A stretch of DNA of 64,000 bases, taken from IMG/VR virus record IMGVR_UViG_3300028596_000001; one strand, given 5' to 3'. Positions 2,404 to 52,295 of this stretch are shown here, in pieces. The notes beneath the pieces were generated by a model, which saw nothing but the letters and a program-made list of their open reading frames with translations, had not been told where the DNA came from and made no database searches. Numbering within the stretch: position 1 is the first letter of the stretch; every line of letters begins with the position of its first letter. Source of the stretch: a virus (lineage: Duplodnaviria; Caudoviricetes). Made by a program: the position numbers and the translations under genes.

Positions 2404-2820
2404 CTACTGTTGCTGCGGATCGTTACCAGGCGTATCGTTACCCCCTTTGTTGGGGGATCTGATAAAGTCTGCTGCACGGTTCCGCAAACGATCGGTGAGA
2501 TCGGTACCTTGCATGATCGTGGAGATGGTCTTGTTGGCGTTAACCCAAGTCCATGCCACTACTACCAGGCCGATGTTAGTCAGCATGATAGTGATCTCAC
2601 TTGGCCAGATACCTTTATCAGATACCGACAAGTGCGTGGTATAGGCGTTGATCACCGAAGTAATGCACATGGTGATGATCGCCAACATACCGCCTAAGTT
2701 ACGAAGAATGATCGTCCACTTGCCGAACAGCTCCCTTTCGATTTCTGCGCCGGCGGCGACGGGAAGATTTGACTGGGGCTGGTCGGACGGGAGGAGCTCT
2801 TCTTGGGGCGAGTCCTTCAT
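2404..2820 (-). CDS. Two-TM membrane protein, candidate holin (138 aa)
   Basis: ATG 2820 with GAGGT SD; hydrophobic segments LGGMLAIITMCITSVINAY and ITIMLTNIGLVVVAWTWV, acidic N-terminus, charged C-terminus; adjacent to the spanin pair. Confidence 0.5.
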   Translation of the reverse strand: MKDSPQEELLPSDQPQSNLPVAAGAEIERELFGKWTIILRNLGGMLAIITMCITSVINAYTTHLSVSDKGIWPSEITIMLTNIGLVVVAWTWVNANKTISTIMQGTDLTDRLRNRAADFIRSPNKGGNDTPGNDPQQQ

Positions 2821-3439
2821 GGAACACCTCAAATTGTTTGCCGATGATTTCGCAACGGAACAAAGCCACGGCAGTTGCGTCGATGGAGTGCTCATCAAGA
2901 AGGTTTAAATCACAATCCCCCGCATCAAGCCAAGCATATTCCAATACGCCTGCTTTTACATCTTCTTTCTGGGTGCCCTTGAAAGCCGCACCCACCACTT
3001 CCTTAGCCAGCATAGGCAGGACATAAGACAAGTGTACTTCATTATCAGTAAACTGTTCCTGCACCATTGACACAAACTGAATCAACTGTTTAAACGTACC
3101 AGGGGAAACCCCGAGGAAGTTGTCTTCACAGATGCCAGTCATAGAACGTGAAATGATCTTTACTTCATCCCAGTCAGTCGAGTAGATACGCAGCAGGTTA
3201 CCCAGTGCGCGGGCCAAAGCCCAGCTACGAGCCAATACACCAGTCTCGTGTGTGTCGTCAAACTGTACCGGGATGTCGTACAGACACCGATCGCCTTTAA
3301 TGGTGTTAGCGTACACCAACTTGAATGGGGTCTGTTGCGTCAAATCAACATCAATGATGCACACCCCCATATTCGTGGTGGAAGGGTCGATGCCGACGAC
3401 CCTTATCACATGAGGGACTTTTACGAAGTCCTTAAGCAT
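2699..3439 (-). CDS. ruvC: RuvC-like Holliday junction resolvase
   Basis: RNase H-fold catalytic motifs VVGIDPSTTNMG, GICED and EHSIDATAVA. Confidence 0.88.
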   Translation of the reverse strand: MLKDFVKVPHVIRVVGIDPSTTNMGVCIIDVDLTQQTPFKLVYANTIKGDRCLYDIPVQFDDTHETGVLARSWALARALGNLLRIYSTDWDEVKIISRSMTGICEDNFLGVSPGTFKQLIQFVSMVQEQFTDNEVHLSYVLPMLAKEVVGAAFKGTQKEDVKAGVLEYAWLDAGDCDLNLLDEHSIDATAVALFRCEIIGKQFEVFHEGLAPRRAPPVRPAPVKSSRRRRRRNRKGAVRQVDDHSS

Positions 3440-7764: not shown

Positions 7765-10700
7765 ATGTCTTACAAAACACGGGCCGTTACGGTGGGTAAT
7801 ACTCCAGTGGACTTTACCAAGGTCAAGAAAAGCTTTTCTAACCTGCCACCGGCTATTCAATCTACACTGCGCAACGCGGTTCCGCGTAACGGACTTACCC
7901 CAGATCGAGGAGACGTTGGCGGCACGGAGACAGTCAACCAGGCGAAGCTGCAACGCCTGAGCGACGTTATCAGTAACAACATCAATGCCGTGACTGACCT
8001 GCGTACCATCACTCCGTATGTTGATAAAGCGGAACTGATTTGGAACACGATCCTGCTTTACCCTAACGGTAAGCAGGACAAGATTTTGACGTACGACACG
8101 GTGTCTTCGCAGTTCAAGAACAATGCGCTACACCTTGAATTGCTTAAGGTTTGGGAAGAATACTTCACCAACGACTATAAGATCGAGGAAGATCTCAGCA
8201 AGATTATCAACGATATCTTGTGGAATACCGGCAGCTACGTACTCTTCAACTTGAGCCGTCCTGGTCTGGATTATTTGATCAACGGCAGCGAGTACGATCC
8301 AAAGAAAGCTCGGGAAGGTAACGAGGCGCACGACATGTACCGTCGTCGCTCTCTGGACGAGCTGAAGAAGGAGTTCGTTGAAGTCAATGGCAAGGTCAAG
8401 GTGAAGAACCTTGGCAAGTTCGTCAGAGACCCAAGCGGTAGTAACAAGAGCAGTGTTAGTGGTCTGGAGGCTATCCTCAGCAACAACATCTCTGACGCAG
8501 GTGTAGAGTTCAACCTGTTCGGTAATGACGTCGACCCTAATGGCGACTTCTGCGTTACTATTACCGACAACCCGGCGTGCCTGTACTTCCAGAAGTTCCG
8601 TGACAACAACCGCCTGTCCAACGCTAACGCGGTGATGGGTGTTGAAAGCATGGACTTGATGGTAGACCAGGTACTCAATGAACCTGAGAAGCTGCGGGAT
8701 CCGATCGAGGATAGCGACACCCGGGTCAAGAAGTCGAAGAAGGCTGACAAGTCTGAAGCTACTACCCAGAACCTGGATGAGCATCAGATCGCTGCTGCTG
8801 CTCGGGAGATCTACAAGGCCCGGAACATCCACAGTCAGCAAATGCAGTTCGTTAAGCCGATTGACACCCTGTCCGTTGCTCCTTACGGTCGTGGTCTCAC
8901 GTGGCACATTCCAAGTGAAGCGGTAATCCCAATTCACTACAACGGTCAGAACAAACGCCAGGGCGACTTCATCTTCCTGCTCGATCCTGAGGAAGGTACT
9001 TTCCTCAAGAACACCGCTGACCCGGAATACTACCAGTCGGTTAACAAGAACAAGTCTGGTATCACCAACAAGAACAAGTCGGGTAGCGAGAACTCCCTGA
9101 TCAGTTCCTTGCGCGTGATCCAGGAAGGTAAGGAATGTGAATTCGACATGTCCGAATTCGTAGACCTAGCCAAAGCTAGTATCATCAAGCAGTTCACTTC
9201 CTCTGTGCTGAGCGACAAAGCTGAGAACATCAGTATCACCATTGACGAAGAGACCAACAAGATCTTCTTGTCCCGTCTGTTCCGTCGTCAGGGTGTACGT
9301 TGCCTGTATGTTCCTGGTGAAGCTGTTACCTACATGGCTTTGAAGTATAGCCGTTTGGGTACCGGTCAGTCCCTCACTCAATTGGCCAAGATGCACATCG
9401 CACGTCTGGCAGCATATGACGTAGCGGATGCTCTGGCTAACCTGGAAGCTGCTCAGCCACATACACTGATGACGCTTACCCACGGTAAGGAAGACGGGGA
9501 TCCGAACAACACTGTCGCTATTGCACGGGCAGCGTTCTACGATCAGAACCCTAAGCTGCACAGTATGCTGTCCAGTGCTCAGTTGTCGGTACCGATGATT
9601 GTAGACTCCCTGCGGGACTCCTCGTTGACCGTTAAGATCAACGCCGGGGATAACCCACTGGTAGCTGCACCAGAGATCGACATGCAACAGATGCAGAAGA
9701 ACTTCTTCCGCCCTGTGGACGATCAGTCTCGTCAGAAGGTAATGAATGACATCGCCAACTACTTCTTCACTCCTCGGAGCTGGCTGGACGTTAGTGATGA
9801 CACGAACAACTTCAAGATCGAGGCGATCACTGAACACGAGATGGTGACCAACCAGGCGGTTAACTGGCAGGCTAGTCTCAGTAACTTCATCGTGGACTTC
9901 GAGAAGAAACATGCTCGGGTAAACGGTCCTTTGATGACTCGGTTGATCAAAACGATCGCTGATAACAAGAAGTACTGGAAACCTGACAACAGTAAGGAAA
10001 AGATCGAGGGTGATGACTCTTCCGTGATCAAGATCTTGCTGGCTGACTTCTTTACTGGCATCAACGTTAGCTTCCCACAACCGTCCAACATTGAGACCAC
10101 TGATAAGCTGAAGAACCAGCTCGACGCGATCGATTCGTTGGTACAGAAGTGGATGGAGATCGCCAGTAGTTCTGAAGTGCTTAAATCGGTTGCTACTTCG
10201 TTGGGTCTGTCTAGCGACGTTGCCAACGGTGAAGAAGTTATCAAGCACGTCAAGGCGTTCTTCTACGCTGAAGCCTTCAAACGCTACAACGTTCCTATGC
10301 CATTCGACGAGATCGTCAATGATGGTAAAGGTGGTGGTATTGCTTCTCTGGTACACGGTATCGTGCATCAACAGATCAACGCACAAGAGTTCTACGTGCA
10401 GTACGTCACTGAGAAGCATAAAGCTACTCAGGCATTCCTCAAGTCCAACAAGAGCAAGCTGGAGAAGCTCCTACAAGAAGTACAGGAAGCTGCTCCGGGT
10501 GCTGAGTTGGGTGACGACGGTCTGCCAGTCGGTGGGGTTGATGACGGCACTGGTGTAGACGCTGGTGCGGAAGGCGGCGATGAGGGTGGTGGTTACAACC
10601 CATTCGGTGGTGACGCAGACGCCGGTACCGATGACGGTACTACTGGTCCTGACGACACCCCGGCTCCTGATGAGGACACGGCTCCTACAGAAGACGCTGG

Positions 10701-10833
10701 TACTGAACCGGCTGCTACTGAAGAAACCGAAGAATCAGAAGAAACTGAACCGGACGCAACGGAAGATAGCACTAAAGGTAGCAAAGATCCAAGCTCTCCT
10801 AACTACGATCCGTTCACTGGCGGTAAGGCGTAA
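7765..10833 (+). CDS. Portal protein (phiKZ gp129-like), 1022 aa with acidic C-terminal tail
   Basis: Size, helical composition and position divergent from the baseplate gene match phiKZ-like synteny; several G-x-E sites (EGNEA, SGLEA, AGVEF, MGVES) in the N-terminal third; AAAGGA SD. Confidence 0.7.
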   Translation: MSYKTRAVTVGNTPVDFTKVKKSFSNLPPAIQSTLRNAVPRNGLTPDRGDVGGTETVNQAKLQRLSDVISNNINAVTDLRTITPYVDKAELIWNTILLYPNGKQDKILTYDTVSSQFKNNALHLELLKVWEEYFTNDYKIEEDLSKIINDILWNTGSYVLFNLSRPGLDYLINGSEYDPKKAREGNEAHDMYRRRSLDELKKEFVEVNGKVKVKNLGKFVRDPSGSNKSSVSGLEAILSNNISDAGVEFNLFGNDVDPNGDFCVTITDNPACLYFQKFRDNNRLSNANAVMGVESMDLMVDQVLNEPEKLRDPIEDSDTRVKKSKKADKSEATTQNLDEHQIAAAAREIYKARNIHSQQMQFVKPIDTLSVAPYGRGLTWHIPSEAVIPIHYNGQNKRQGDFIFLLDPEEGTFLKNTADPEYYQSVNKNKSGITNKNKSGSENSLISSLRVIQEGKECEFDMSEFVDLAKASIIKQFTSSVLSDKAENISITIDEETNKIFLSRLFRRQGVRCLYVPGEAVTYMALKYSRLGTGQSLTQLAKMHIARLAAYDVADALANLEAAQPHTLMTLTHGKEDGDPNNTVAIARAAFYDQNPKLHSMLSSAQLSVPMIVDSLRDSSLTVKINAGDNPLVAAPEIDMQQMQKNFFRPVDDQSRQKVMNDIANYFFTPRSWLDVSDDTNNFKIEAITEHEMVTNQAVNWQASLSNFIVDFEKKHARVNGPLMTRLIKTIADNKKYWKPDNSKEKIEGDDSSVIKILLADFFTGINVSFPQPSNIETTDKLKNQLDAIDSLVQKWMEIASSSEVLKSVATSLGLSSDVANGEEVIKHVKAFFYAEAFKRYNVPMPFDEIVNDGKGGGIASLVHGIVHQQINAQEFYVQYVTEKHKATQAFLKSNKSKLEKLLQEVQEAAPGAELGDDGLPVGGVDDGTGVDAGAEGGDEGGGYNPFGGDADAGTDDGTTGPDDTPAPDEDTAPTEDAGTEPAATEETEESEETEPDATEDSTKGSKDPSSPNYDPFTGGKA

Positions 10834-10857
10834 AGCAAAAAAAAGAAACAAGACTAC

Positions 10858-10890
10858 TAACCCCTACCCACCATTGGTGGGTAGGGGTTA
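10858..10890. terminator. 15-bp bidirectional hairpin terminator
   Basis: TAACCCCTACCCACC-ATT-GGTGGGTAGGGGTTA; on the minus strand followed by the U-rich tract opposite A8 at 10837-10844. Confidence 0.85.
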
Positions 10891-10897
10891 TGTCTGC

Positions 10898-11275
10898 TTA
10901 GGCTTTAGGTTTGAAGAAACTCACGCTATCGATAACTTTTTCCTGCCTGTCGTTGACAAGAGTTACCATGACCTGGAACTTGTCGCACATGATCCGCTCA
11001 CCTACCAGATCATTGCTCATCTCCAAGCGAATGAACACTTTGTCAGAGAAGACTTTATCACTATCATGGGCCAGTACTTCCAGCAGCATGGTCGTGATAC
11101 GGTGGATCAGGTTAGGCATGCGCAGCAGTGGCTTTGGCCAATTACCGCTACGGCGGATCTTGGCGAACAGATCAATGATCGCTTGTGGATCTACGTGGGC
11201 TGGTACGTCATCAACCGGTCCGCGAAATACTTCAGAGGCTTTTAGTACCGCGGGAAACTGATTAGCTGTAGTCAT
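10898..11275 (-). CDS. Hypothetical protein (125 aa)
   Basis: AAGGAAG SD, fills the gap before the terminator. Confidence 0.65.
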   Translation of the reverse strand: MTTANQFPAVLKASEVFRGPVDDVPAHVDPQAIIDLFAKIRRSGNWPKPLLRMPNLIHRITTMLLEVLAHDSDKVFSDKVFIRLEMSNDLVGERIMCDKFQVMVTLVNDRQEKVIDSVSFFKPKA

Positions 11276-11290
11276 AGCTTTCTTCCTTTA

Positions 11291-11794
11291 TTAGTAAGCG
11301 ACATGTTGATTGTAATAAACCATCCAGTCCACACCACGTACCTGGACGCACATACCTTCTTTAACTCCGTAAGGACCTTCATGGAGTAGTAGGAGGAGTT
11401 CATACTGGAAGCGACCAGAAATATAAAGGTCACGTTCCATCAAAGCTAACACTACTTCTCGAGCTATCTCCATAGGTTTACGCCTGAGTGCTTTATTACC
11501 TCTGTGCAAGAACGGCTCAAGCTCGCGTTCAATCGAGTTAAGAAGACTCACCCCACCTTCGAACCGGCCGAGCGCATTCAGATCCAGTATGATGTGATGC
11601 GGGAGTTCTGGTTTAAGCGCAGGACCAGCAATAGGGGTGGTGCGTAGGCGGTGTTGCAAGTACTTCTTGAGATGTCCGCCAGAAGGCCTTGGTTTGTCTT
11701 TAGAGGTCGTTGTGTCGTAGACGTTGTAGTACGTCAACAGATTAGCCAACTCTGGCAGGGAGAGCTTATCGAGGTCTTTATCGGTAACTGACAT
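11291..11794 (-). CDS. Hypothetical protein (167 aa)
   Basis: AAGGAG SD before ATG 11794. Confidence 0.7.
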   Translation of the reverse strand: MSVTDKDLDKLSLPELANLLTYYNVYDTTTSKDKPRPSGGHLKKYLQHRLRTTPIAGPALKPELPHHIILDLNALGRFEGGVSLLNSIERELEPFLHRGNKALRRKPMEIAREVVLALMERDLYISGRFQYELLLLLHEGPYGVKEGMCVQVRGVDWMVYYNQHVAY

Positions 11795-11821
11795 TACAAC
11801 TCCTTCTTCGACAAAAAAGAA

Positions 11822-11838
11822 AGGCCCACGAGGGGCCT
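11822..11838 (-). terminator. Intrinsic terminator
   Basis: AGGCCC/GGGCCT stem followed on the minus strand by TTTCTTTTTT. Confidence 0.7.
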
Positions 11839-11866
11839 AAAGGGGAAACAGCAGTCAGCTGTTAGG

Positions 11867-12328
11867 TTAAGCTTGTTTACGCGCTTGGTATTCAGCGTTC
11901 CAGGCGTCGTGCTTTTCTTTAGCAGTAGCTTGCATCTCGGCTACCTTCTCCATCGAAACCAGATCGGTTTCTTTCAGCTGGCTATCAACCAGGTAATGGA
12001 CGTTAGCCAGGAAGGAGCTGCAGAACAGATTGCCGGTTTGAGATTCGTTGTAGTTCAGGATGGCTTGGTCCATGGTGTTATCGAATACTTCGACGCAACC
12101 ACCGACGCTGTCACGGGAGATGTGAGCTTTGCCGTCTTTACCGAGGTACAGCAGGTTCAGCGAGAAGTACTTAGCTTGAACCAGAGCTACTGGAACCAGG
12201 TGATCACCTTTTACCAGAGTGGCGATGCCGTACACAGCGCGCTCGCCAGCGCCACGGTGATCATCTACTACTACACCGTTGTTAGCGTTAACAGCAGCAA
12301 CAACAGCAGCGAAAGTTTGCATAGTCAT
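11867..12328 (-). CDS. Hypothetical protein (153 aa), stand-alone, probably early gene
   Basis: ATG 12328 with AAGGA SD; own upstream AT-rich region and downstream terminator; strongly biased codons. Confidence 0.75.
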   Translation of the reverse strand: MTMQTFAAVVAAVNANNGVVVDDHRGAGERAVYGIATLVKGDHLVPVALVQAKYFSLNLLYLGKDGKAHISRDSVGGCVEVFDNTMDQAILNYNESQTGNLFCSSFLANVHYLVDSQLKETDLVSMEKVAEMQATAKEKHDAWNAEYQARKQA

Positions 12329-12396
12329 GGTGAGATCCTTTTTACTATAAAGAGAATATAGCAATTCAAATGAATTACTGTTCTTGATTCACCCTA

Positions 12397-12413
12397 GTTA
12401 TATAGACCTGAGA
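12397..12413 (-). promoter_or_regulatory. Degenerate copy of putative phage promoter motif (TCTCAGGTCTATATAAC)
   Basis: Differs from the motif at 62825 mainly by transitions; lies between a terminator and a gene start. Confidence 0.35.
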
Positions 12414-12444
12414 TCCCGTAGAAATTAAAAATACAGCATAGCTA

Positions 12445-12472
12445 CCCTACCTACCCGAAAGGGTAGGTAGGG
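12445..12472 (-). terminator. 12-bp hairpin terminator after the nvRNAP operon
   Basis: CCCTACCTACCC-GAAA-GGGTAGGTAGGG; T-rich tract follows on the minus strand. Confidence 0.8.
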
Positions 12473-12507
12473 ACTATAACTAAACTAATTGCGCAATTAA
12501 CTCAGCC

Positions 12508-14886
12508 TCAATTGAGACCCAGCAGCACCAGCGCTTTCTGAGTGTCAACATGACGCAACGTGGCCACGTTACGATCACCGAGGGTATAGCTGAACAGCCA
12601 GACGTTGTTCGAACCACTGAAGCGGATCAGCTTATCACGGTAGATCTCATCTTGCAGAACATCTTGGTCCTGGTCTTCCACGACGATTTCCATCAGACGG
12701 AAGATTTCAGGGAAGGTGCTGCGCTTGATGTATTGCGGTACGTTGACTTCTTCGTAGTACGGACCTTTGTTGCCTACGACGTTAGCCATGTAGAAGCTAC
12801 GGATGACGTACAGGTTGACGTCGTCTTTCAGCTTGTCCAGAGCGCCCATCTCTTCACGAGGAACCAGATGCGGGTTGGCCTTGTGGAAGAGTTGCAGATG
12901 GCGGTTCAGGTAGCTGTCAGGTTTGATACCGACGAAGACGTTGAACGCGGTCTCGTCATTCTTGTGCAGCTCGTTGTACAGGTCGTCGATGTCAGCAGCC
13001 AGGTTATCGATCTGGAGCTTACCACCACCGCCTTTACCGTCTACCACGTTGTAGCCGCACTCGTTGGCCAGCCACTGGTTGCAGATCTCGGTCAGGCGAC
13101 CGTTGATGAAAGTGCACAGGCCGTTGTCCAGGACACCTTCGCGGAACAGATTTTTCAACTTCTTGGCAGCTTCATAGAAGCTTGGACGGTCAGCTACGGT
13201 CAGCTGGCTGTCGGCGAAGACGAACGGAGCGTCCAGGAACAGACGTTCTTTATCTTCGGCAGAGGCACACTCGTAAGTGTTCCACTCGGTTAGGTTGTCG
13301 AAGACTGCGGCGGAGGTATCTTTGAACTTGCTGGTGACACGGCTGGTGATCAGATTAACGTTGTTGATGATGGCAACCGATTCTTTCTCAACGATTGGCT
13401 CGTCGATAACAATCGCAGGGATGCCTTCACCGAGGGCCTTGACGCTTTCAACTGGAACTTCCAGCTTGTCATCTTTGGCCACTTCAGCGAGTGGAGCAGC
13501 GATGACCATGTAGGCGTCGTTGTCGTTATCTGGCTTGTCCAGCAGCGGCAGCAGCAGAGCTGGGTTGGTAAGTACTCTTGTCACATCGAGATTCTCAGCA
13601 CGAACTACATGACTGAACCACCCGTTGTCTGCCTGCAGATCGATTACCACGATACGGAAGCAGCCGTGCATCAGAGCTTCCTCTTGACGCATTTCCGGGT
13701 GACGTTGGAAGACGCGTTGGATTTGACGCCAATCGCTTTCTGGAATGAAGTAGTGGTTCGGACGACCGGTCGGACGGAAGTAGCGAGGAAGATCGAACTC
13801 CCGCATGTTGTTCCGGTCTAGGTTTTGCAAATCGTTACGGATAGTACCCCAAGTCATACCCACCTCGTTAGAAACATTATGGTTAGCGGCCGGTTTACGC
13901 GGCGGCTCCTGGTTAACTTTGTAACCATGATAAGCTGCAGCGTTACGTTTGATCATCGCCGTAAGACTGTTATGGTCTTCGGTTTGGTAGACTTCAGTCC
14001 GCGCCTGCTGCGGAACAAAGCCCAGGTATTCCGCATAGTTGTTCGGGTCATAGACTCGAGCATACTCCACGGGTGTGCTGATGTGGCTTACAAAGTTCAA
14101 GTTGGCATAAGGGAATGGTGCGTCGAAGGTTTCCCACATCTTCGAGAACTGTTCCTTAATGCCGTCAAGGTTTGCCAACTGCTGTTCTAGCGTTTTCGGG
14201 AGTCGATGGTTAAACGACAAACCCTTCTTCGTGTTGAACAACCAGTTAAGCAATTCCAGGAACAACACGTGATAGCAAGCGAGTTGAACTGCGTTGTTGA
14301 AATCCTGCTCAGTCCACTGCTCTTTATTACTGCGGCGCATTTCTTCGATCAGCAGATAACCGAAGATCACAGTACCCTGCATAGCGATAGTGTGATGGAA
14401 CGTCGCGATCTTGTTAACGTCAGCAATGAACTCTTTCTTCAGCGGGCAGGGATACCCAGTTTGCTGATCCAGTACGAACTGTTCTTTAACTTGCTGATAG
14501 TTCTTGTAGAACACTGCAGTCTCGCGACGGCTCATGTAGTACAGGAACTTTACCATGGGCTCTTCGACCTTACCGATATAGTACTCGATAGTGTCGGAGT
14601 CAACAGCCCCGCTACCTTCTAGCATCCCTGCTAGTACATCGTTATGCTCCACGCCACCGTTGTGGGTCTTCCAGTTGAAGCCGGTGGGTGATGCGCCGGT
14701 AGTACTCATACCACCAGCGAGCAAACCTTTAATAGTGTTGCCTGGGATCAGCGCTGCCGCGTTACCCATTTGAGGACTTAAGTTAACACCGCCCACACCG
14801 CGGTGCTGCATTCCTGCTGGCGGGGCTACGTCCAGATTGATACTGCCAGGACGCATGCCACTTGTCGGGCGTAGGGAATCACTCAT
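12508..14886 (-). CDS. Conserved hypothetical protein (792 aa) translationally coupled to the nvRNAP subunit
   Basis: ATGA overlap with 14883; G/P/M-rich disordered N-terminus followed by a globular body. Confidence 0.75.
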   Translation of the reverse strand: MSDSLRPTSGMRPGSINLDVAPPAGMQHRGVGGVNLSPQMGNAAALIPGNTIKGLLAGGMSTTGASPTGFNWKTHNGGVEHNDVLAGMLEGSGAVDSDTIEYYIGKVEEPMVKFLYYMSRRETAVFYKNYQQVKEQFVLDQQTGYPCPLKKEFIADVNKIATFHHTIAMQGTVIFGYLLIEEMRRSNKEQWTEQDFNNAVQLACYHVLFLELLNWLFNTKKGLSFNHRLPKTLEQQLANLDGIKEQFSKMWETFDAPFPYANLNFVSHISTPVEYARVYDPNNYAEYLGFVPQQARTEVYQTEDHNSLTAMIKRNAAAYHGYKVNQEPPRKPAANHNVSNEVGMTWGTIRNDLQNLDRNNMREFDLPRYFRPTGRPNHYFIPESDWRQIQRVFQRHPEMRQEEALMHGCFRIVVIDLQADNGWFSHVVRAENLDVTRVLTNPALLLPLLDKPDNDNDAYMVIAAPLAEVAKDDKLEVPVESVKALGEGIPAIVIDEPIVEKESVAIINNVNLITSRVTSKFKDTSAAVFDNLTEWNTYECASAEDKERLFLDAPFVFADSQLTVADRPSFYEAAKKLKNLFREGVLDNGLCTFINGRLTEICNQWLANECGYNVVDGKGGGGKLQIDNLAADIDDLYNELHKNDETAFNVFVGIKPDSYLNRHLQLFHKANPHLVPREEMGALDKLKDDVNLYVIRSFYMANVVGNKGPYYEEVNVPQYIKRSTFPEIFRLMEIVVEDQDQDVLQDEIYRDKLIRFSGSNNVWLFSYTLGDRNVATLRHVDTQKALVLLGLN

Positions 14887-50033: not shown

Positions 50034-50073
50034 TAAAATACCCCCTACCCTTAACGGGGTAGGGGGTATTTTA
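50034..50073 (-). terminator. 17-bp hairpin terminator
   Basis: TAAAATACCCCCTACCC-TTAACG-GGGTAGGGGGTATTTTA. Confidence 0.85.
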
Positions 50074-50079
50074 CTATGC

Positions 50080-50514
50080 CTACACTTTAATCTGTTTTGG
50101 ATCGATGCCAGCTTTATTCAAGAGATCCAGTTGATCCTTGGGTAATCCTTGTTGTCTAGCTTGCTGTTCCCGTTTGGCTGCCTCTGCTTTCTCTCGTTTA
50201 TTAAGTCCTGAACTAACCGCTTCCAAGAATTCGTCCACGACAACGGCAGGGAGAGTCAAGAAATCCTTGGGATCCATGAGCTCCTTCAGTTTGTGGTATC
50301 CGTAGTGCTCGCCAATTTGCTCAAGCGACCACGGATGGAAGAAGTCATTCTCAGCAGAGAAGTACCCAATAGACGAGAAGGGAGTTCGAGTCTTCTGGTT
50401 GTAGTACTCAAGGTTAAGATCAACCATCATCTTCTCATTGAGTGCTAAAGCCTCGGGAAGCATGTGTTTCGTTGAGCGTCCCAACAACTGCTTGGTAACG
50501 CCCTCATGCACCAC
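50080..50514 (-). CDS. Downstream (T-like) part of a tail/baseplate assembly chaperone pair; probably made as a -1 frameshift fusion
   Basis: Weak GTG start with no well-spaced SD; its frame is open upstream across the slippery site at 50625-50631; resembles short T4 gp51 / lambda T-type partners. Confidence 0.65.
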   Translation of the reverse strand: MVHEGVTKQLLGRSTKHMLPEALALNEKMMVDLNLEYYNQKTRTPFSSIGYFSAENDFFHPWSLEQIGEHYGYHKLKELMDPKDFLTLPAVVVDEFLEAVSSGLNKREKAEAAKREQQARQQGLPKDQLDLLNKAGIDPKQIKV

Positions 50515-50549
50515 GCTAAACTCGATCTTCCCTCCCGGACGGACGCGCG

Positions 50550-52295
50550 CTATTCGGAGAGGGCTTTTGCCTTTGCTTCCAGACTTTCGGTTGCGGCGTT
50601 CATCATGAGCAACTGGATATGGGTAAAAAAACTCATGATCGGGTCGATCGGAGTGTACCCCAACTTACGTTCTTTCAGACCTTCCGGATCTTCGAGCTCC
50701 GCCTGGTTCTTCTTGCACTTCGGACAGTCGAAGTTCTGAAGGGCGACGAAAGACTTCGACAAGAACGGAGTCTTGTTGATGATGTCTTTGGTCAGTACCA
50801 GGTTCAGATACTTGGACTCCTTGATGACCTCCAAGAGACCTTCGTTGAAGTCGTTCTGGTCACGAGCACGATCGCGATCCAGGACAATGTCCTTTTCCTC
50901 GCTGTTCGGCGGAGCGATACCAACGAAGAGGTTCACCCAGTGGATGTACTCAGTGGCCCCCAGGTCGGTGTAGAGCATGTTGCGCTGGGTTTCGTACTCT
51001 TCTGGATCGATGATCTTGGTACGCAGGTCTGCCAGCATCGGCGAGATACGACCGGAGAAGTAGTCGAAGGTCATGAAAGCGTCTGCCAGCGAAGGCGAGG
51101 CCAGTTCCATGTAGATCGACTTGTCTTCGTTGTACACCTTGGCAGTGTCCAGACCGAAGTTGGCCTTCTTGATCAGCGCCAGCGTTTCATCCGCGGTGTA
51201 GGTCACCTTGTGGTTGAACAGGTTGGCGTAGATCGCAGACTCTTCATCAGTGTCGTGCCAGTCGCGGTGGTGAACGATCTTTTCCGGATCGACCAGCTGG
51301 AAGTCTTTCCAACCACAGCCAGGCGCAGCACAGATCAACTGCATGTGCACACCCTTGTTGGTGTACGCGCGCAGCAATGAGGTGGTCAGTACGTCGATAT
51401 CCGTCCAGCGGATAATACGAGCCAGCTGGGAGAAGTCACCGATGTCGCTGATGCTCGAGTAAGTGATACGCGAAACGATGAAGTTCCAGATCACTCGGGC
51501 GGCGGCAACACGAGCCAGGATCACACTGTTGTTGTTGACTTGGCGGACGTAGCCCTTGATCGCCGTCTTGATGTCGTTGATCAGGTTACCCATTTCCATC
51601 TTCGACGGACGGGTGATGATCAGCTTGGTGAACGAGTTGCGCAGTTCGATATCGAACATCAGCTTCCCGTCTTCAGCATTGATCGACCGGCGGCGCATGA
51701 TCTCGGAGTCTTTCAGGTTCTTGGTGTTGAGGCCTGGTTTACGACCGTTGATGTCGGAGGTAACCAAACCACCGCGGTCACAGACGTTGGAGATGCCTTG
51801 CTCACGAATAGCGTTGGAACGCATCTTCACTTCGTCGAGGAACTCGGTGTAGAAGGAGATCATGCGCGAGGCCATCTCTTCTGCATCGTCTACCGTCAGG
51901 TCTGGGTAGTTCTTCTCGACAAAAGCTTCCCAATCGAGTTCTTGCTTCTTCGCTGCAGCAGAAAACTGCATCGGATCGGCGTCGGCCATACGGCGCATGG
52001 TCATCAACTGGATAAACGGCTGCATCAGCTTGGCCGAGTTATCACGCGATGCTTTGCTGTTGCCCAGGAACACCGTGATATAACCTTGGGCGATCTCGTC
52101 TTCAGTGAGTTCGCGAACAAGACACGTCTGAGGAATCAGACGCTTCTTCATGGTGGTGTTTTCGGCGGTGTGCACTTCGTTGAAAGTCGCCGGAGTCACC
52201 TGGGGTTTCTGTTCTGCTGGAGCCGCGGCTGGAGCTGGCGCAGCAGCTGCTTCTTCTGCTGGTCGTTGACCGTTAATCTCTTCTGACATCATCAA
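50550..52295 (-). CDS. Probable tail/baseplate-hub assembly chaperone (T4 gp26-like), 581 aa
   Basis: Disordered Ala/Pro N-terminus, paired Cys motifs CAAPGC and CPKC, followed by a short partner ORF. Confidence 0.6.
   Translation of the reverse strand: MMMSEEINGQRPAEEAAAAPAPAAAPAEQKPQVTPATFNEVHTAENTTMKKRLIPQTCLVRELTEDEIAQGYITVFLGNSKASRDNSAKLMQPFIQLMTMRRMADADPMQFSAAAKKQELDWEAFVEKNYPDLTVDDAEEMASRMISFYTEFLDEVKMRSNAIREQGISNVCDRGGLVTSDINGRKPGLNTKNLKDSEIMRRRSINAEDGKLMFDIELRNSFTKLIITRPSKMEMGNLINDIKTAIKGYVRQVNNNSVILARVAAARVIWNFIVSRITYSSISDIGDFSQLARIIRWTDIDVLTTSLLRAYTNKGVHMQLICAAPGCGWKDFQLVDPEKIVHHRDWHDTDEESAIYANLFNHKVTYTADETLALIKKANFGLDTAKVYNEDKSIYMELASPSLADAFMTFDYFSGRISPMLADLRTKIIDPEEYETQRNMLYTDLGATEYIHWVNLFVGIAPPNSEEKDIVLDRDRARDQNDFNEGLLEVIKESKYLNLVLTKDIINKTPFLSKSFVALQNFDCPKCKKNQAELEDPEGLKERKLGYTPIDPIMSFFTHIQLLMMNAATESLEAKAKALSE
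50625..50631 (-). other. Candidate programmed -1 frameshift slippery heptamer T TTT TTT
   Basis: Frame 0 reads AGT TTT TTT ACC; the -1 frame from here has no stop until 50080. Confidence 0.7.

Follow-up and report, generated by a model that had tools for sequence, protein, structure and literature searches.

The locus considered here raises the question of whether two adjoining open reading frames (ORFs) are two genes or a single gene with two protein products. It lies on the minus strand of a 64,000-nt stretch of the virus record IMGVR_UViG_3300028596_000001 (hereafter the window), in which a gene for a large protein is followed by an ORF of 144 codons. Comparison with related phages points to a programmed -1 frameshift on the ribosome, by which one gene would give both a short and a C-terminally extended product. 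We consider this reading probable in that full form, and recoding of some kind at a run of T near the end of the large gene still more so, to the point of near confidence. Both the slippage itself and its placement on the ribosome rather than on RNA polymerase are what we infer from the sequences. The elements of the locus are the following:

50550..52289, minus strand: frame-0 gene encoding the short form of 579 amino acids (aa) (P0002), from the ORF list, the translation and the protein on record
52289, minus strand: ATG start of the frame-0 gene, as in the protein on record (P0002), with an alternative TTG start at 52295 (581 codons)
50552..50550, minus strand: TAG stop of frame 0
50625..50631, minus strand: slippery heptamer T_TTT_TTT in X_XXY_YYZ register, at Ser553-Phe554-Phe555 counted from the ATG, seen in the sequence
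50083..50631, minus strand: predicted -1 frame reading after the slip, 183 codons from the Phe-Phe (P0034), 181 of the residues new, by translation
50553..50624, minus strand: putative dual-coding overlap, THIQLLMMNAATESLEAKAKALSE in frame 0 and YPYPVAHDERRNRKSGSKGKSPL in frame -1, both peptides conserved in relatives
50515..50549, minus strand: "intergenic" stretch, apparently coding in the -1 frame (RIARVRPGGKIEFS), from the absence of a stop, indels in multiples of three and third-position variability
50080..50514, minus strand: 144-codon ORF called from GTG 50514, 35 nt after the frame-0 stop
50550..50566, minus strand: nearly invariant block AAGCCCTCTCCGAATAG at the frame-0 stop, read as KALSE and stop in frame 0 and as KSPLRI in frame -1, from an alignment of 10 relatives

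The original prediction, made from the letters of the window, had placed a T TTT TTT heptamer at 50625-50631 in X XXY YYZ register, with frame 0 reading AGT TTT TTT ACC. This was confirmed in the sequence, where frame 0 around the site is ATC ATG AGT TTT TTT ACC, 81 nt before the TAG and with 24 sense codons ahead of the stop. The accompanying statements likewise held: Phe is otherwise mostly encoded by TTC (the share of TTT among the Phe codons of the large gene is only 21%), the last stop in the -1 frame before the heptamer is a TAA 11 codons upstream of it, beyond which that frame by translation runs into the 144-codon ORF, and the fusion would measure 738 aa from the TTG (736 aa from the ATG). 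The Shine-Dalgarno (SD)-like run nearest to the GTG was also as described, GGGAGGG at 50536..50530 ending 15 nt ahead of GTG 50514. From the heptamer onwards the -1 frame reads FFYPYPVAHDERRNRKSGSKGKSPLRIARVRPGGKIEFSVVHEG... and meets no stop until TAG 50082..50080.

Under the proposed mechanism, most ribosomes would read frame 0 and terminate at TAG 50552..50550, releasing the short form of 579 aa. Some, holding tRNA-Phe in both the P and A sites at T_TTT_TTT (50631..50625), would slip back by one base and go on translating in the -1 frame, across the "intergenic" stretch and to the end of the 144-codon ORF. The long form would then consist of residues 1-555 followed by a domain of 181 residues, 736 aa in all. 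Because the site has the form T_TTT_TTY, tRNA-Phe would re-pair perfectly in both sites after such a slip. In a systematic study in E. coli, H_HH.U_UU.Y heptamers were among the most efficient -1 motifs, U_UU.C and U_UU.U ranking behind only A_AA.G as tetramers; insertion sequence (IS) elements use U_UU.U_UU.C (PMC4066793).

A DNA-level search of the phage collection with the window locus gave no match, and relatives therefore had to be sought at the protein level. With the large protein as query, tblastn matched 69 phage records at 26-37% identity, among them EL (37% identity to EL gp47, E-value 2e-124), RisingSun/Joad, FishSpeaker, Miami-like Klebsiella phages, Vibrio Gorgonvirinae, Aeromonas phages, pEt-SU, AH04 and N1M2. 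phiKZ was not matched by this query; its counterparts by synteny are gp77 (533 aa) and gp76.4 (80 aa), next to gp80 (virion RNA polymerase) and gp79 (head), and a tblastn search with phiKZ gp77 matched 226 records, covering the remaining clades. The PhiPA3 record itself links gp074, phiKZ gp77 and EL gp47, and the gene order is the same across clades, beside a virion RNA polymerase subunit. Judged by these comparisons, the large protein belongs to the chimallivirus gp77 family (phiKZ gp77, EL gp47, PhiPA3 gp074). In PHROGs it corresponds to phrog_4585, the families concerned being of unknown function. PicA/Imp1 (phiKZ gp69) had been considered as its counterpart for its position near RNA polymerase genes and was rejected, the syntenic phiKZ gene being gp77.

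The site was compared in the window and 25 named phages (26 genomes) and in nine distinct metagenomic relatives of the window; the named phages represent more than 15 genera and all chimallivirus clades, with proteins only 20-40% identical. In-register N_TTT_TTY is kept in all 26 genomes and in the nine metagenomic relatives. A T stands in register before both Phe codons, as T_TTT_TTT or T_TTT_TTC, in 25 of the 26, and the T_TTT_TTC form, with a run of only six T, is found in three large clades (12 of the 26 genomes). The distance from the site to the frame-0 stop varies from 33 to 120 nt across genomes. The downstream ORF is in phase -1 in 26 of 26 genomes, and in every one of them no stop interrupts the -1 frame between the heptamer and the point where the small ORF is annotated to start, over spans of 28-104 codons and nominal gaps of 8-236 nt; the nine metagenomic relatives agree in both respects. 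phiKZ, for instance, keeps ACT TTT TTT ACT and an open -1 frame over a gap of 218 nt. The alignment of orthologous pairs for a conserved heptamer and an open -1 overlap, which the original prediction had proposed as a check, was positive in every ortholog examined.

Chance estimates were based on each gene's own codon usage and its own density of stops in the -1 frame. Per genome, the chance of the site given the conserved Phe-Phe is 0.01-0.25 and that of the open frame 1e-5 to 0.4; with the 26 genomes taken as independent, the log10 probabilities sum to about -26 (site) and -59 (open frame), totals in which the genomes count as more independent than their kinship allows. Between genera, however, synonymous sites have reached saturation, and as few as ten independent lineages would already make an overwhelming case. 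By these estimates, the conservation of the heptamer and of the open -1 frame is far beyond chance.

Two records stand apart from this set. Pseudomonas phage vB_PQ1 (PQ516283) was left out since its assembly is fragmented by errors; its region is split into short ORFs, with the RNA polymerase subunit in four pieces and the gp77 homolog in several. Such fragmentation is what uncorrected long-read errors typically produce, and frames cannot be judged reliably from this record. Enterobacteria phage SEGD1 has a single 795-codon ORF with the N-terminal part and the extension in one frame, and is the one exception among the public records examined, all others having two genes annotated at the locus. 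Compared with SPN3US, a patch of 18 nt immediately before the T run diverges and includes one additional base (locus positions 2925-2960 versus 2226-2260). About 30 other SPN3US-like records retain two ORFs, and the patch is either a sequencing error or a natural variant that makes the long form only.

Counted from the Phe-Phe, the extension downstream of the site measures 153-185 aa in all genomes (the 26 and the nine relatives), and the annotated small ORFs measure 69-149 aa and begin with ATG, GTG or TTG at non-homologous places. The close relatives of the window, 31-80% identical over the extension, conserve the peptide ahead of the two possible starts (SPLRIxRxxPGGKxEFSVVHEGxTxxLLGK) and not the starts themselves, GTG 50514 and the internal ATG 50463. 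The match of the window's ORF to phrog_19747 begins only at residue 25 of the 144 codons. The phiKZ extension matches phrog_12109 from residue 29, a point inside the annotated gap, gp76.4 as annotated starting at about residue 88. Profiles of the extension from EL-type and phiKZ-type clades align with each other at an hhalign probability of 91% (E-value 9e-7, 95 columns). The extension domains are homologous across both halves of the family, and the added domain, and so the frameshift, would therefore be ancestral to it. By this comparison the event dates back to the ancestor of the whole chimallivirus family, taking in phiKZ gp77 and gp76.4, EL gp47 and gp48, SPN3US and the rest.

Variability by codon position, as mean pairwise nucleotide difference among the relatives of the window, is as follows:

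200 codons upstream, frame 0: position 1, 0.28; position 2, 0.23; position 3, 0.50
overlap, frame -1: position 1, 0.36; position 2, 0.32; position 3, 0.31
"gap", frame -1: position 1, 0.52; position 2, 0.48; position 3, 0.66
GTG to ATG, frame -1: position 1, 0.45; position 2, 0.26; position 3, 0.59

The flat variability in the overlap is as expected if two frames are coding there. Indels in the gap among relatives are multiples of three, and by these measures the "intergenic" gap evolves like coding sequence in the -1 frame. We read the 144-codon ORF, on this comparative evidence, as the C-terminal part of the long form and not as a gene of its own. The frame-0 tail beyond the site is conserved too (FFT.xQL..., ending E-x-L-S in many clades), and the short form therefore also looks functional. 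The part of the stop block reading GAAGCCCTCTC is present in EL, RisingSun and FishSpeaker as well. The role of the AAGCCCTCTCCGAATAG block may be simple double coding, or it may be a signal; in the minimum-energy fold of the window it can pair with the SD-like GGGAGGG (50530-50536). The fused products are predicted to contain the following peptides:

phiKZ, junction peptide: FPHLIPIDMLSTFFYFGGLEVK(PDGVVNDLR)
phiKZ, example of a gap peptide: LEATFTEDSGHILHPNFGYDK
the window's phage, junction peptide: ...IDPIMSFFYPYPVAHDER

Several observations weigh against the ribosomal frameshift. Single-sequence folds of eight phages have no downstream hairpin in common, with z-scores against shuffles mostly insignificant; RNAalifold on 10 relatives downstream of the site predicted 0 pairs; and no upstream SD-like stimulator is evident. 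A stimulatory element is not obligatory for low-level frameshifting. PhiPA3 has G_TTT_TTT, an imperfect heptamer. In addition, an RNA-seq table for phiKZ (region NC_004629 71442-73504) gives about 8,000-13,000 for PHIKZ076.4 and about 1,300-2,100 for PHIKZ077 in the same columns, with units unchecked (supplement of PMC12571901). As the values for PHIKZ076.4 are several-fold higher, the distal part may also be on a transcript of its own, and the excess may stem from a transcript start inside the gap or from a separate or stable 3' fragment. An extra, independent product of the distal part is possible, by analogy with 26' of phage T4. A terminator scan found no terminator-like site between the heptamer and the small ORF. 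In the phiKZ antisense screen (supplement of PMC12571901) both oligomers against PHIKZ077 were marked toxic, and because they are toxic by themselves the screen gives no phenotype for PHIKZ077; the Grad-seq supplements do not list PHIKZ077 or PHIKZ076.4. No RNA run holding the window's phage is on record, the runs with this phage being soil and wastewater DNA.

Other accounts of the T run have to be set against the frameshift. The reliance of chimalliviruses on multisubunit RNA polymerases of their own and the failure to find a stimulatory RNA structure would suit transcriptional slippage, in which the phage or host polymerase adds one U in the T run so that part of the mRNAs encode the fusion and the same proteins result. 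Runs of seven T are indeed slippage-prone templates and hence avoided in all frames in E. coli, yet U_UU.C slips better than U_UU.U (PMC4066793), and the 12 of 26 genomes with T_TTT_TTC, the C fixed in last place, fit the heptamer rule and not selection for the length of a run. The T ahead of the two Phe codons, in register in 25 of 26 genomes, argues in the same direction. We therefore hold transcriptional slippage to be unlikely and strongly favor the ribosome over the polymerase as the place of the slip.

The two ORFs could also be ordinary genes, the small one translated only from GTG 50514 or ATG 50463, the T run being no more than a conserved Phe-Phe and the open -1 frame functionless. 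The annotation of two genes in public records, the SD-like GGGAGGG upstream of the GTG, the higher RNA values of gp76.4 than of gp77 in phiKZ and the internal-start product 26' of T4 gene 26 would all agree with this. However, the SD-like run is 15 nt from the GTG, the starts are unconserved even in close relatives, homology in the extension reaches back beyond the annotated starts, and a gap of 8-236 nt without a -1 stop, evolving as coding sequence and followed by an ORF in phase -1, recurs in 26 of 26 genomes. Two separate genes are on this evidence very improbable. Least credible is that the homopolymer was missequenced or misassembled, or that a single gene was split by a frameshift mutation of recent date. 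Such runs do invite errors, contigs from two samples end close to this one, and SEGD1 has both parts in one frame; against this, the same two-frame arrangement appears in 35 independent genomes or assemblies, a contig from an independent soil sample spans the T run with zero differences, and frame 0 beyond the run is itself conserved, as is the place where it stops. To judge from these comparative data, the error or split-gene account is already refuted, and we give it practically no weight. A programmed ribosomal frameshift therefore remains our preferred reading of the locus.

What the two predicted products might do was approached through their family, fold and neighborhood. No Pfam family matches the large protein or any of the 41 members of the family collected for alignment. 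Two pairs of Cys, about 200 residues apart, mark the alignment of these 41 homologs, with C320, C325 and C522 invariant and C525 nearly so:

51315..51332, minus strand: first Cys pair C320-x4-C325 (LICAAPGCGW), invariant in the 41-sequence alignment
50715..50726, minus strand: second Cys pair C522-P-K-C525, C522 invariant and C525 in at least 90% of the 41-sequence alignment

The two pairs probably form a four-Cys metal site. In Ralstonia phage RSL2 and FLC1-1B the second pair (CPxC) is missing from the C-terminal 50 residues, although Phe-Phe, heptamer and open -1 frame are all retained, so that not every member of the family has the putative metal site.

A confident AlphaFold2 model of the large protein, built with the 41-homolog alignment, has a mean predicted local distance difference test (pLDDT) score of 86.4 and a predicted template modeling (pTM) score of 0.85. 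Foldseek against the viral models of BFVD returned family members at the top (PS1, Special G, RSF1, phiEaH2 and others; template modeling (TM) scores 0.6-0.77). Next in the list came many entries of about 250 aa from T4-like and other myophages, named as baseplate hub subunit, hub assembly protein or chaperone, with E-values of 1e-4 to 5e-2, probabilities of 0.8-1.0, and TM scores of 0.45-0.56 by target and 0.25-0.3 by query. AFDB clusters and the ESM Atlas agree weakly with these hub-protein matches; the ESM Atlas matches include a cluster bearing PF12322 (TM 0.42/0.45) and rows for Phage_TAC_4 and Phage_TAC_15 (TM 0.47 and 0.41 by target over about 105-113 residues). The gene neighbors are a virion RNA polymerase subunit, a head structural protein, small genes of unknown function and a DNA polymerase gene. 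The phiKZ record marks gp79-81 and gp83-97 as structural and leaves gp77 unmarked, which would be in keeping with a chaperone, although as evidence this is thin.

The original prediction had likened the Cys motifs and the short partner to T4 gp26 and gp51, and the resemblance finds support at the level of predicted fold (Foldseek) and of motif layout. T4 gp26 has C82/C84, C187PEC190 and then F204 F205 at its very end (it reads ...KCTCG...(100 aa)...CPECGKTHAHVIRGLKEFFELL and stop), so that it and the window protein (C320/C325, C522/C525, F554 F555) share the order of a Cys pair, a CPxC pair and a C-terminal Phe-Phe. A local BLAST alignment pairs CPKC...GLKE of the window family with CPEC...GLKE of T4 gp26, and SPN3US reads CPACGKTHG at the place of the second pair. 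The resemblance did not extend to sequence profiles. T4 gp26 and gp51 match PF12322 (T4_baseplate; NCBI name "gp26 family baseplate hub assembly chaperone") at 9e-64 and 4e-52, whereas the hidden Markov model (HMM) of PF12322 matches 0 of the 41 gp77-family members at E<=1. The profile comparison suggested in the original prediction likewise came out negative, the gp77-family profile aligning with that of gp26/gp51 at an hhalign probability of only 1.6%. The window protein is, moreover, 2.5 times larger than T4 gp26, with an extra N-terminal helical part, and T4 gene 26 has TTC TTT, which is no slippery site, its second product 26' arising from an internal start. T4 gp26 ends in ...GLKEFFELL and stop, and gene 25 starts on the last base of that stop codon, in the -1 phase (locus positions 2803-3429); a frameshift between genes 26 and 25 was considered for this phase and rejected, TTC TTT not being slippery. 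Because fold matches are present but the profile probability is 1.6% and T4 gene 26 is without a slippery site, we file the large protein as related in predicted fold to the gp26/gp51 hub-assembly chaperones and not as a proven member of their family.

The function that we propose is that of an assembly chaperone absent from the virion, fold-related to T4 gp26/gp51 and following the short and long form logic of lambda G/GT, in which the domain added to the long form would recruit a second partner. From the modeled fold, the chances of an assembly-chaperone function for the gp77 family are about evenly balanced. That the family is the missing tail or baseplate assembly chaperone of phiKZ-like phages, a true and enlarged relative of gp26/gp51 whose recoding is essential in every nucleus-forming jumbo phage, is a more tentative proposal, which we ourselves hold to be rather doubtful. 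A number of results tell against these functional proposals. Beyond the empty PF12322 search and the hhalign value, solved structures gave no meaningful match to the model (Foldseek against the PDB, VIA-align), the extension alone is modeled poorly (pLDDT 55), and, unlike that of lambda G/GT, the gene is not placed between the tube and tape-measure genes. An ESM Atlas feature search with the extension gave no match.

These results would also agree with a real frameshift in a protein that is no tail or baseplate chaperone and acts in another conserved process of these phages, for instance at the phage nucleus, in the assembly of head or ejection proteins, or in replication, its likeness to gp26/gp51 being that of a zinc-ribbon scaffold only. 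In all clades the gene is flanked by virion RNA polymerase and head-protein genes on one side and by the DNA polymerase gene on the other, a sequence-level link to PF12322 or to the tail assembly chaperone (TAC) families is missing, the TM scores of the fold matches are low (0.25-0.3 by query, no more than 0.56 by target), and RSL2 and FLC1-1B do without the second Cys pair. On the other side, dozens of independently named baseplate-hub entries stand just below the family members in the fold lists, which hold no other functional class, and the order of Cys pair, Cys pair and Phe-Phe is common to T4 gp26. Such a different function is quite possible, though it falls short of probable. The assembly-chaperone reading, at its even balance, is the one carried forward in the comparisons below.

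Some further features of the region concern the ends of the transcript and of the protein.

50035..50066, minus strand: GC-rich hairpin followed by a T run, directly after the end of the -1 ORF, seen in the sequence, with the same hairpin reported on the plus strand at 50048..50065

This hairpin is probably the terminator of the transcript. A 5-bp hairpin (GATCGACCCGATC) lies at 50637-50649 on the minus strand, 5 nt upstream of the slippery T run. The site was scored as terminator-like in the scan because this small hairpin precedes the T run, and the hairpin so labeled is probably a by-product of that run. Residues 1-30 of the large protein (52200-52289, minus strand) are of low complexity, rich in Ala, Pro and Glu (AEEAAAAPAPAAAPAEQKP) and disordered in the model; an N-terminus of this kind probably explains the label "ZipA-like cell division protein" on the homologs of RisingSun and ZPAH34.

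The literature search, on frameshifts or tail chaperones in Chimalliviridae and jumbo phages and on phiKZ gp77 or PHIKZ077, found no description of this frameshift, and mentions of "gp77" refer to genes of other phages. This bears out the original prediction, to whose author no account of it in the phiKZ-like group was known; no paper or record of it was found. phiKZ, PhiPA3, EL, SPN3US and Goslar are intensively studied models, the family includes candidate therapeutic phages, and in the records of those models the locus appears as a pair of hypothetical genes. Should the frameshift be real, the family would have a core gene whose second product has gone unrecognized, the annotation of hundreds of genomes would need correction, and genetic screens that treat the ORFs separately (antisense, transposon, CRISPR interference) would need to be read anew. 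The locus also supplies a specific candidate for an assembly chaperone of the tail or baseplate in jumbo myophages, and through it T4 gp26/gp51 and the lambda G/GT paradigm may be linked in evolution. Were the family a true relative of gp26/gp51, the G/GT principle, in which a bulk short form is accompanied by a rare frameshifted form that brings in a second partner, would hold in the T4-type hub-chaperone lineage as well. The G-T frameshift has been reviewed as conserved in long-tailed phages "except T4" (PMC5009743), and such a relationship would explain why T4 looks like the sole exception to the conserved tail-chaperone frameshift.

The nearest parallels are lambda G/GT, P2 E/E+E' and Mu, in which a -1 slip near the 3' end of an assembly gene likewise yields a short and a C-terminally extended form. 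The conserved -1 frameshift in the tail assembly chaperone genes of long-tailed phages (Levin 1993; Xu 2004) is reviewed in PMC5009743. Chaperones of the G/GT type bind the tape measure through the short part and the tube protein through the added part. The lambda G/GT kind and the gp77 locus have in common a downstream ORF without a start of its own and an arrangement conserved despite divergence in sequence; the lambda products are absent from virions, and those of the gp77 family probably are too. The claim in the original prediction of a G/GT-type tail chaperone is thereby upheld for the logic of short and long forms. It does not hold for the size of the protein (about 580 aa as against about 130 aa in lambda-type proteins, with an extension of about 180 aa), for the TAC Pfam families, none of which matches the large protein or the 41 members, or for the position of the gene, between RNA polymerase or head genes and DNA polymerase genes. 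The heptamer differs as well, T_TTT_TTY in the gp77 family and G_GGA_AAG in lambda.

T7 gene 10 (10A/10B) and E. coli dnaX (tau/gamma) similarly employ a late -1 frameshift to make two forms of one protein, the T7 frameshift using the U-rich site G GUU UUC. In dnaX the slip is stimulated by an SD-like element and a hairpin, whereas no stimulator was found at the gp77 locus. The locus is, then, of a known kind of recoding, a -1 frameshift, and differs in the size and family of the protein, in the position of the gene and in the type of heptamer. Whereas in T7 a capsid protein gains a short tail and in dnaX the product is truncated, the frameshift at the gp77 locus would add a whole conserved domain to a non-structural protein.

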